DNA of 64,000 bases from an uncultured Gammaproteobacteria bacterium. GTDB taxonomy: Bacteria > Pseudomonadota > Gammaproteobacteria > Steroidobacterales > Rariloculaceae. Shown here piece by piece: positions 13,680 to 14,332 of the stretch (its first letter is position 1; each line of letters starts with the position of its first letter). The notes beneath the pieces are model-generated. The model saw only the letters and a program-made list of their open reading frames with translations, searched no databases and was not told the DNA's origin. The DNA lies in contig CAVQLK010000012.1 of the NCBI GenBank assembly GCA_963713355.1, positions 36,679-100,678 of the forward strand, read 5' to 3'. The position numbers and the translations under genes are program-made.

Positions 13680-14332
13680 GGGGGCGACTGGCTTCGACGT
13701 GGGTCGCGAAACCTGAGGTGCATGCCGAGGTGCAGAGATCCTCGTAAAACCGTCTGCAAACTGTTAGTTGCCAACGACGACAACTACGCCCTAGCCGCCT
13801 AAAAACCGGCTTAAGCCGTCTGACTGGAGCCGTGCTTGTGCGTCCAGCGTCCGCAAGGACATTCAGGCGTCATCTTCACAAGATCGCGACGAGGTACGTC
13901 CGGGACCAGATCGCTAAGATCCTTTAACGGAATCGCCGTCAGCGTGCCCTGTTCGTCGGGTTGCTGCCGGTTAAAACAATAGACGTGACTACGCATGTAG
14001 AGCTGATGGCAGAGGGCTTGCGGACGCGGGTTCGATTAACGCAATGGTCGCCTTTGCCCGCGAGGGCAAAGTGATAACGGGGCTCAATCGGTGAACCCTG
14101 GGTGACTCGGAGATGGGTCACGTGGCAACGCCGAGGGGTGCGGGAAGGCCAACTTCCCTTGCCCTGTAGAGACTCATAGACAGGCTGATGCTGCGCGCAG
14201 GAGCCTGCACTAGGATTCGGATCGCATTGGATCCGAATAACACGCCCCGCTCCGGCTCGACGGCGAGCCGGATGAAGGCATAGTCCAGCCCGTCTCGAAA
14301 GAGATGGAACAGCTGTCCCGCCGCCTCCACCA
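13680..14332 (+). ncRNA. ssrA: tmRNA, intron-split (exon 1 13680-14036, exon 2 14316-14332; 374 nt when spliced)
   Basis: Acceptor stem GGGGGCG/CGCCTCC with the G3.U70 alanine determinant, then ACCA. Tag frame 13770-13802 encodes ANDDNYALAA*. The T-arm GCGGG-TTCGATT-CCCGC forms only after 14037-14315 is removed. Confidence 0.97.
14037..14315 (+). ncRNA. Group I self-splicing intron in the tmRNA T-loop (no homing endonuclease ORF)
   Basis: 5' exon ends in U and the intron ends in G. Conserved core segments AATCGGTGAA, CAACGCCGAG, GTAGAGACT and GAAGGCATAGTCC. P1-P9 helices fold by hand. Confidence 0.93.

Follow-up and report, generated by a model that had tools for sequence, protein, structure and literature searches.

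In a 64,000-nt stretch of DNA from an uncultured soil gammaproteobacterium (hereafter, the window), the transfer-messenger RNA (tmRNA) gene ssrA lies in two pieces directly downstream of smpB, the gene for the protein partner of tmRNA. The 279 nt between the two pieces very probably constitute a functional group I intron, devoid of an open reading frame (ORF) of its own and inserted between the sixth and seventh T-loop bases of the only tmRNA gene of the genome (Table 1). Exon 1, which ends with ...GCGGGTTCGAT at position 14036, contains the 5' strands of the acceptor stem and the T-stem, the frame for the tag, the pseudoknots, and T-loop bases 1-6 (TTCGAT). Exon 2 supplies the final T-loop base, the 3' strands of the T-stem and the acceptor stem, the discriminator A, and the CCA end. 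The insertion point (TTCGAT/T) corresponds to T-loop subsite 7 in the numbering given in the text of PMC11915505, and the last base of the insert is G14315, the omega G.

On the uncut DNA, ARAGORN reports no tmRNA, and the Rfam tmRNA model RF00023 matches positions 13687-14038 (167.8 bits), a match in which the T-arm lacks its 3' half and the acceptor strand is missing. After in-script excision of 14037-14315, ARAGORN recognizes a tmRNA of 374 nt with the tag ANDDNYALAA. The joined exons form a complete tmRNA that includes the acceptor stem with its G3.U pair, the T-arm GCGGG-TTCGATT-CCCGC, the tag frame, and the terminal CCA. The predicted exon junction reads GGGTTCGAT joined to TCCCGCC, and the last 45 nt of the predicted ligated product are identical to those of an intronless relative from the same genus (L020; L numbers denote loci, and G numbers genomes). 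These results bear out an earlier interpretation made without database searches (the sequence-only reading), which had placed the split at 14036, the last 17 nt of the tmRNA at 14316-14332, and the end of the 279-nt insert at G14315, had noted that excision restores the T-arm, and had warned that annotation may miss or truncate the gene. The practical risk is that such a genome is reported either without ssrA or with a 3'-truncated copy.

Fold and splice sites of the insert

Comparative analysis was based on an alignment of 20 distinct introns inserted at the same site, 7 of them from the genus and family of the window and 13 from named loci of metagenome-assembled genomes (MAGs) found via SmpB. 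Unguided, RNAalifold recovers helices P1, P2, P3, P4, P5, P6/P6a, P7.1, P7.2, part of P8, and P9, as well as the tmRNA T-stem closing over the intron, and compensatory changes are observed in 40 of the 76 pairs of this fold. An explicit model of 77 pairs, with P7 entered as a pseudoknot, has 97.1% of its cells paired, compared to 86.6% in shuffles (0 of 500 shuffles reach the former value). Double changes are found in 40 of the 77 pairs (20.3 expected), and control registers slid by 1-3 columns pair in only 35-45% of cells. Across the intron, the T-stem pairs in 20/20 sequences, five of which carry a C-G to G-C double change at one pair. Helices P7 and P9.0, both proposed in the sequence-only reading, were recovered in the fold; P7, with its bulged A14170, is presumed to be the guanosine-binding helix and to form a pseudoknot with P3. 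The six-pair P1 proposed there (CGAUUA with UGGUCG) was recovered for five pairs, including the U14036.G14047 wobble; its sixth pair, A14038-U14045, exists in the window and is not conserved in relatives.

The splice-site signature, a U at the last exon position (-1 U) together with the omega G, is present in 20/20 aligned introns, in 9/9 loci sampled at the class level, and in 4/4 further loci. The U.G pair of P1 is found in all 19 sequences with letters at this place, and the neighboring pair is C-G in 10 and U-G in 9 of them. L063 combines the T-loop TTCAAT with the guide GGTTG, which is a compensatory G-C to A-U double change in P1. The boundary of the window intron is ambiguous by itself, since a T stands at both candidate positions, and this ambiguity is lifted by the many relatives whose introns start with C. 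Of the remaining introns, that of L063 starts with TG and the others start with TA. The second intron base differs from the C that follows the exon-2 loop T in 17 of 33 introns (10/20, 6/9, and 0/4 in the three sets above, plus L063), and therefore the boundary cannot be shifted by one base. Structure, covariation, and splice-site rules thus all fit the group I identity assigned in the sequence-only reading. A separate observation concerns L084:3487-3684, where a 198-nt intron lacks the region from the 3' strand of P1 through P5; either this MAG has an ssrA with a crippled ribozyme or the locus is misassembled, and a similar defective case is described as rejected in the survey text of PMC11915505.

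Table 1. Features of the split ssrA locus in the window and endonuclease genes at ssrA loci of related genomes
Feature	Position	Strand	Evidence and remarks
smpB (tmRNA protein partner)	13151-13621	+	156-aa ORF; NCBIfam NF003843 SmpB, 212.3 bits (cut-off 130); intact
ssrA exon 1, 357 nt	13680-14036	+	RF00023, and ARAGORN after excision
Tag reading frame GCC...TAA (ANDDNYALAA + stop)	13770-13802	+	ARAGORN, positions 91-123 of the spliced tmRNA; sequence read directly
Group I intron (predicted), 279 nt, without own ORF	14037-14315	+	-1 U and omega G rules, restored T-loop, covariation
P1	14033-14037 with 14046-14050 (span 14033-14050)	+	Exon and intron bases pair with the internal guide; U14036.G14047 wobble at the 5' splice site
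P2 hairpin	14053-14059 with 14064-14070	+	GCGA loop; double changes in 7/7 pairs, 100% of cells paired
P3	14078-14083 with 14244-14249	+	Double changes in 3/6 pairs (G-C to A-U in 7 sequences); 100% of cells paired
P4	14088-14093 with 14129-14134	+	6 pairs: 5 invariant, 1 with a one-sided change; encloses P5 and a variable P5 extension
P5	14097-14098 with 14124-14125	+	2 pairs, 1 double change
P6	14135-14140 with 14160-14165	+	Double changes in 4/7 pairs
P6a	14144-14147 with 14153-14156	+	Double changes in 3/4 pairs
P7	14169-14174 (GAGACU) with 14282-14286 (AGUCC)	+	A14170 bulged; 5 pairs invariant in 20/20; strands align to the RF00028 consensus
P7.1	14177-14186 with 14202-14212	+	Double changes in 5/9 pairs; predicted by RNAalifold unaided
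P7.2	14215-14223 with 14230-14238	+	Double changes in 7/9 pairs; predicted by RNAalifold unaided
P8 hairpin	14252-14259 with 14264-14271	+	Loop ACGG; 8 bp read directly; outer 3 alignable across relatives, 2/3 with double changes
J8/7 (AUGAAGGCAU) and P7 3' strand (AGUCC)	14272-14286	+	Nearly invariant in 20 introns; aligns to the RF00028 consensus GAUGAAGAUAUAGUC
P9.0	14287-14289 with 14312-14314	+	96.7% of cells paired, 1 double change, 2 unpaired cells
P9	14290-14296 with 14301-14307	+	GAAA loop; double changes in 5/7 pairs
ssrA exon 2, 17 nt, TCCCGCCGCCTCCACCA	14316-14332	+	Direct reading, and ARAGORN after excision
G+C-rich hairpin of 12 bp just past CCA	14336-14365	+	Direct reading
Intact endonuclease genes in relatives	L016:2253-2696 (same genus as the window); L033, L047, L063, L105, L106, L109	+ (L016)	
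Decayed endonuclease copies in relatives	L017, L062, L066, L082, L110, L112		

P7.1 and P7.2 are extra helices between P7 and the 3' strand of P3 (14177-14238). Helices at this place are a trait of subgroup IA, and the tmRNA intron of Clostridium botulinum has reportedly been assigned to subgroup IA3. Three ORFs overlap the intron, 13942-14460 (minus strand), 14304-14966 (plus strand), and 14121-14333 (minus strand); none of them matches a Pfam family, and hence the intron encodes no protein. The hairpin past CCA is probably the terminator of ssrA or a 3' processing signal, and each of the 13 related loci compared has a similar hairpin after CCA. A promoter and terminator pattern scan called no terminator on the plus strand, and no T-run follows the hairpin.

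Under the proposed mechanism, ssrA would be transcribed as a precursor of approximately 653 nt, in which the intron would fold into a P1-P9 core with P7.1 and P7.2 as additional helices. Free guanosine bound in P7 would attack after U14036, held in the U.G wobble by the internal guide GGUCG, and the 3' OH of the freed exon 1 would then attack after G14315, ligating the 17-nt exon 2. Ligation would restore both the T-arm GCGGG-UUCGAUU-CCCGC and the acceptor stem with G3.U and CCA, in the absence of which the RNA could neither be charged with alanine nor bind as a tRNA mimic.

RNA contigs, ribosome rescue and alternative explanations

In six metatranscriptome runs, 0.55-0.64 of the sampled words were found, where exon 1 alone makes up 0.55 of the stretch. 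Contigs were compared for three RNA runs from three studies (X15, X16, and X17) and for one DNA run (X1). Between bins 14004-14029 and 14056-14081, the summed contig depth drops from 9266 to 12 in X15, from 1293 to 4 in X16, and from 1461 to 1.7 in X17, compared to 74 and 40 in X1; gaps in intron coverage cannot count as absence in such contig-based runs. Past position 14037, one contig each in X15 and X16 continues with CCCGCCGC and CCCGCCGCCTCCA, respectively, both of which are exon 2 letters. The unspliced junction between exon 1 and the intron is bridged by low-depth RNA contigs (X15 record 15 and X16 record 21) and by DNA contigs (X1 records 2-4). The RNA contigs fit removal of the intron, and they are not assignable to this organism. 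From the conserved core and splice sites we infer that the window intron would be self-splicing and would catalyze its own removal in vivo.

Several observations weigh against a functional intron. Contig depths are summed over organisms and are a poor measure of the RNA level, and the two loose ends that resemble a junction comprise 8 and 13 letters only, each in a single contig. None of the joints listed for the compared runs leads from 14036 to 14316, so that the junction check proposed in the sequence-only reading yielded two contigs running into exon 2 letters, without such a joint. The mature 3' end is identical in intronless relatives, and thus the junction-like contigs may stem from other bacteria. 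In X1, the best-matching DNA run, an exon-1 contig with a depth of 30.6 ends exactly at 14037, and the depth of the intron is 5.6; the two depths suggest that intronless or other-intron alleles of a near-identical ssrA coexist with the intron-bearing one in that soil. Upstream of ssrA, the promoter scan found no sigma-70-like promoter, and no P10 pairing was found by eye. Covariation is silent on P7 and on most of P4, which do not vary, although the invariant letters of both agree with the Rfam consensus. Finally, the group I model RF00028 (Intron_gpI), which has a gathering score of 50, matches the insert with only 29.3 bits (E 7.6e-5). For this reason, the insert is filed under the structural group I class rather than under the Rfam family. 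According to a preprint (bioRxiv 10.1101/2020.01.27.920355), none of the 12 seeds of RF00028 was bacterial. The low score is a limit of the model, which has non-bacterial seeds and lacks P7.1 and P7.2, and not of the class.

The window genome (5.38 Mb, 12 contigs, 98.8% complete, 7.55% contamination) contains one tmRNA above the cut-off, all other matches of the whole-genome search being tRNA-sized. A second intact ssrA, which would have removed the dependence on splicing, was thus not detected in this genome, and with a single ssrA trans-translation needs removal of the intron; it would have to pass through an RNA-catalyzed splicing step. The broader claim of the sequence-only reading, that ribosome rescue as such depends on self-splicing, was narrowed, since the genome also encodes ArfB (G000:C11, locus L115:1468-1899, plus strand; 143 aa; NF006718, 183.4 bits, cut-off 100), the third RF-1-domain gene of the genome. 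ArfB provides a back-up rescue route, and therefore only trans-translation depends on splicing. ArfA was not found in the window genome by a search whose control was positive in E. coli only.

The availability of ArfB is in line with a reading in which the intron is decaying or inactive, ssrA is in effect a pseudogene, and rescue proceeds via ArfB. The absence of a homing endonuclease in or beside the intron, the RF00028 score below the gathering score, and the defective intron of L084, which demonstrates that crippled copies or misassemblies exist, point in the same direction. We nonetheless regard an inactive intron as very unlikely: all core helices are intact in the window and the changes in relatives are compensatory, the exons are 96-100% identical across a clade of five intron-bearing species (described below), the adjoining smpB is intact, and so are the tag frame and the G3.U acceptor pair. 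If host RNases removed the insert and no ligation followed, the product would be a tmRNA in two pieces, kept together by its acceptor and T stems as in permuted tmRNAs. Two-piece tmRNAs are described as a gene form in the text of PMC11915505, the 17-nt exon 2 could pair with exon 1 over 12 bp, and RNA contigs cannot surely separate ligated from unligated ends. This possibility is even more remote, since the insert has the complete group I core, supported by covariation, and 33/33 introns keep both the -1 U and the omega G, none of which would be expected of a mere spacer. Moreover, two RNA contigs go from exon 1 straight into exon 2 letters, and the permuted-tmRNA model yields only 30.7 bits against a cut-off of 47, over a different region.

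A third alternative, in which the insert arose through faulty assembly or binning or as a chimera and is foreign to the ssrA of this organism, can be nearly dismissed. The metagenome-type assembly with its contamination level and the contig break at exactly 14037 in X1 speak for it. Independent assemblies of 5 other genomes from the genus, of a sister genus, and of 14 named MAG loci show the same architecture, and it is also carried by complete single-contig genomes such as G553 and G519; the exon 1-intron junction is, in addition, bridged in the DNA run and in both RNA runs named above. The functional ORF-less intron is the preferred reading.

Known tmRNA introns and distribution of the intron

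The first description of a tmRNA intron is said to be that of Williams in 2002. As described in the text of a large survey (PMC11915505), the tmRNA gene occurs in three forms, one of which is the intron form, comprising 883 unique sequences among 97,179 from 21 phyla; an earlier survey counted 343 intron-form genes. All introns of the survey lie in the T-loop, at four subsites, most of them at the "previously known" position 7, and the splice-site rules are the same as those applied here. The mean intron length is 293 nt (843 founding database sequences), endonuclease genes are reported inside only 36 of 883 introns (4.1%), and 96% have no internal ORF. The class is found predominantly among Bacillota, and the main text names no Pseudomonadota. 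The survey also provides a covariance model, tmRNA_intron, with the authors' cut-offs of 150 bits and 500 bp. The precedent named in the sequence-only reading, a self-splicing tmRNA intron in C. botulinum, was confirmed: PMC2729099 deals with this 287-nt intron, previously shown to self-splice, and probes it with 5'-CGAU-3'. The statement that the class exists but is rare held in its first part; rarity was overstated, given the 883 sequences of the survey and the 18 of 401 class genomes reported below.

The window intron shares the host gene and subsite 7 with the catalogued introns; it follows TTCGAU, and its last four exon bases are the same as the 5'-CGAU-3' exon mimic used for C. botulinum. 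A -1 U paired to G in P1 and the omega G are common to the window and the catalogued introns, the size is similar (279 nt, compared to 287 nt in C. botulinum and 293 nt on average in the catalogue), and the introns are alike in possessing P6a and the P7.1 region and in lacking an internal ORF. In comparison with the published descriptions no structural difference was found, and the host is what differs (an uncultured soil gammaproteobacterium versus mainly Bacillota). Homology to the Bacillota introns is based on the shared site and architecture only. The window ssrA is thus a correct instance of an already catalogued gene form, and in principle, the annotation risk and splicing-dependent trans-translation were both known before.

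A second group I intron was observed in the window genome (G000:C8:77344-77605, minus strand; locus L009, about 1500-1770), with an RF00028 score of 60.8 bits, above the gathering score. It is located in the anticodon loop of a tRNA with the anticodon CAU, where the loop reads CTCAT, then the intron, then AA. Like tRNA group I introns, the ssrA intron is an ORF-less ribozyme in a tRNA-like loop with a short 3' exon and exon-defined boundaries. Unlike them, it occupies the T-loop rather than the anticodon loop, and it differs in architecture from the tRNA intron of the same genome by having P7.1 and P7.2 between P7 and the 3' strand of P3 and by its RF00028 score (29.3 versus 60.8 bits).

The nearest named relatives of the window SmpB are proteins of uncultured Gammaproteobacteria MAGs (best identity 82%), many of them labelled Steroidobacteraceae, in agreement with the gammaproteobacterial host predicted in the sequence-only reading, which had also called for a survey of ssrA in related genomes. 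Within the genus, the intron is present in 5 of 22 other genomes. Another 15 match exon 1 only, and the 5 of these that were fetched were all confirmed to have a standard tmRNA; of the other two genomes, one has its match truncated at a contig end and the second gave no match. The unpublished genome G039 enters this tally only. The sister genus (G023) also carries the intron. Of 80 loci of named SmpB neighbors, 42 were called as standard ssrA and 14 as the intron form; no call was obtained for the other 24, several of which are cut by contig ends. In a sample of the order, intron DNA was matched in 24 of 401 genomes, including 18 long matches from four families, and in an evenly drawn sample of the class a match was found in 18 of 401 genomes (approximately 4%) from 17 genera. 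All nine class-level loci that were fetched contain the intron at the same subsite and with the same splice rules.

A tree was built from 75 mature tmRNAs, 29 of which derive from intron-bearing genes; the nine class-level loci were chosen for intron presence, which biases this count. A duplicate (L024) and an odd call of 302 nt (L077) were left out. The latter, an unusually short ARAGORN tmRNA at L077:3023-3324 with the tag AAVP, is probably a miscall. The intron label requires 16 changes on the tree, compared to 23.4 for shuffled labels, and at least 11 of them are forced by well-supported branches; hence, at least 11-16 gains or losses of the intron are needed over the 75 sequences. Its presence is patchy even among near-identical hosts. 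For instance, L033 and L040 have identical mature tmRNAs of 355 nt, and only L033 contains an intron (280 nt), which points to a very recent gain, a precise loss, or polymorphism. Together with the 3' end shared with L020, this pair serves as a natural control for the predicted splice sites.

The window belongs to a supported clade (97) of five intron-bearing species with 96-100% identical mature tmRNAs and 85-96% identical introns. Intron identity to the window drops from 0.96 to 0.85 while tmRNA identity holds at 0.96-1.00, and the intron is most likely a mobile element at its endonuclease-free stage, passed on vertically within this clade. Across 28 introns (378 pairs, with L084 and the duplicate L024 left out), the identities of introns and of host tmRNAs correlate weakly (Spearman 0.27). 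Recent long-range transfer was considered and rejected, as no intron pair exceeds the tmRNA identity of its hosts by more than 0.13. Another candidate explanation, in which the intron shields ssrA by splitting an integrase attachment site, was dropped: in a scan of the two longest downstream open frames per locus in 75 loci (139 of 388 open frames), an integrase domain was found in only 1 of 139 frames, leaving the comparison powerless.

Endonuclease genes downstream of ssrA in relatives

In the same scan of downstream frames, two frames matched LAGLIDADG_3. The motif xAG[LV]xDGEG was found in seven frames, all in intron-bearing loci and all on the ssrA strand, with the ATG located 39-96 nt into the frame that opens after CCA. 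Four of the seven score above the Pfam cut-off, and the other three reach 16.8-18 bits. The seven proteins are 41-64% identical to one another, their profile matches I-MsoI and I-CreI (best E 1.2e-12), and a model of the same-genus protein (predicted local distance difference test 89) superposes on I-CreI with a template modelling score of 0.70-0.76. By tblastn, an intact or decayed copy (Table 1) was detected at 13 of the 29 loci with the intron and at none of the 46 without it. The gene is positioned directly 3' of ssrA, past the terminator hairpin. Since 12 of the 13 endonuclease loci have a single copy of exon 2, ahead of the gene, the latter is free-standing and not intronic. In the thirteenth, L112, the exact 17-nt exon 2 occurs twice, at 1771-1787 and 2289-2305, about 500 nt apart and with the second copy beyond a decayed endonuclease fragment; the second copy may be a footprint of a homing or recombination event. 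The window itself has no endonuclease gene in the region 13001-16000 (best tblastn E 0.3), and a search of the whole window genome with the same-genus query from L016 found none.

The even sample of the class gave a similar picture. The endonuclease family is present in 17 of 400 scored genomes and is located at the ssrA flank in 16 of the 17. In ten of them, the gene follows the intron match at a distance of roughly 60-240 nt, with both on one strand of one contig; four have a diverged position-7 intron that BLAST had missed; two (L120 and L122) contain a standard intronless ssrA followed by an endonuclease homolog; and the locus of one is cut by a contig start. The homolog of L120 (G568) is interrupted by an internal TAG stop, and G602 (L122/L123) has two endonuclease copies 8.4 kb apart, the second without an adjoining tmRNA. 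Conversely, the gene is present in 10 of 15 genomes with a BLAST-detected intron match of at least 44 nt. In gammaproteobacteria, the tmRNA intron is usually accompanied by a free-standing LAGLIDADG gene located immediately after the 17-nt exon.

This association suggests collaborative homing. In a review (PMC3984707), the treatment of collaborative homing covers two phage systems and does not mention tmRNA, and a literature search found no paper linking a free-standing endonuclease to tmRNA introns. The relatives resemble the phage systems in having an I-CreI-like gene 3' of ssrA almost only where the intron is present, a layout to be predicted for an enzyme that cleaves intronless alleles where the intron would insert. 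They differ in that the hosts are bacterial chromosomes, the target is an RNA gene, and the cleavage specificity is putative; the window differs further by having no endonuclease gene.

In our view there is about an even chance that this intron lineage spreads as a three-part unit, consisting of the ORF-less intron, the 17-nt exon with the terminator hairpin, and the endonuclease gene. The endonuclease, presumably acting as a homodimer, would cleave intronless ssrA at the palindrome formed by its T-arm DNA (GCGGG-TTCGATT-CCCGC), a specificity that we infer, and the intron would shield its own allele by splitting this cut site. The window intron would then represent a late, endonuclease-free stage of the mobile element. 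If true, this scheme would explain why only 4.1% of the catalogued tmRNA introns seem to carry an endonuclease, as the surveys looked inside the intron and not behind the gene. The endonuclease association and the patchy presence of the intron are leads that may merit the attention of specialists.

A minor observation concerns the region further downstream of ssrA (14472-15922, minus strand), where a gene for a HerA-like ATPase (PF05872) is broken into two frames that overlap. Profile positions 6-332 fall in frame 14774-15922 and positions 320-438 in frame 14472-15188, and the split is a frameshift, a pseudogene, or an assembly error.

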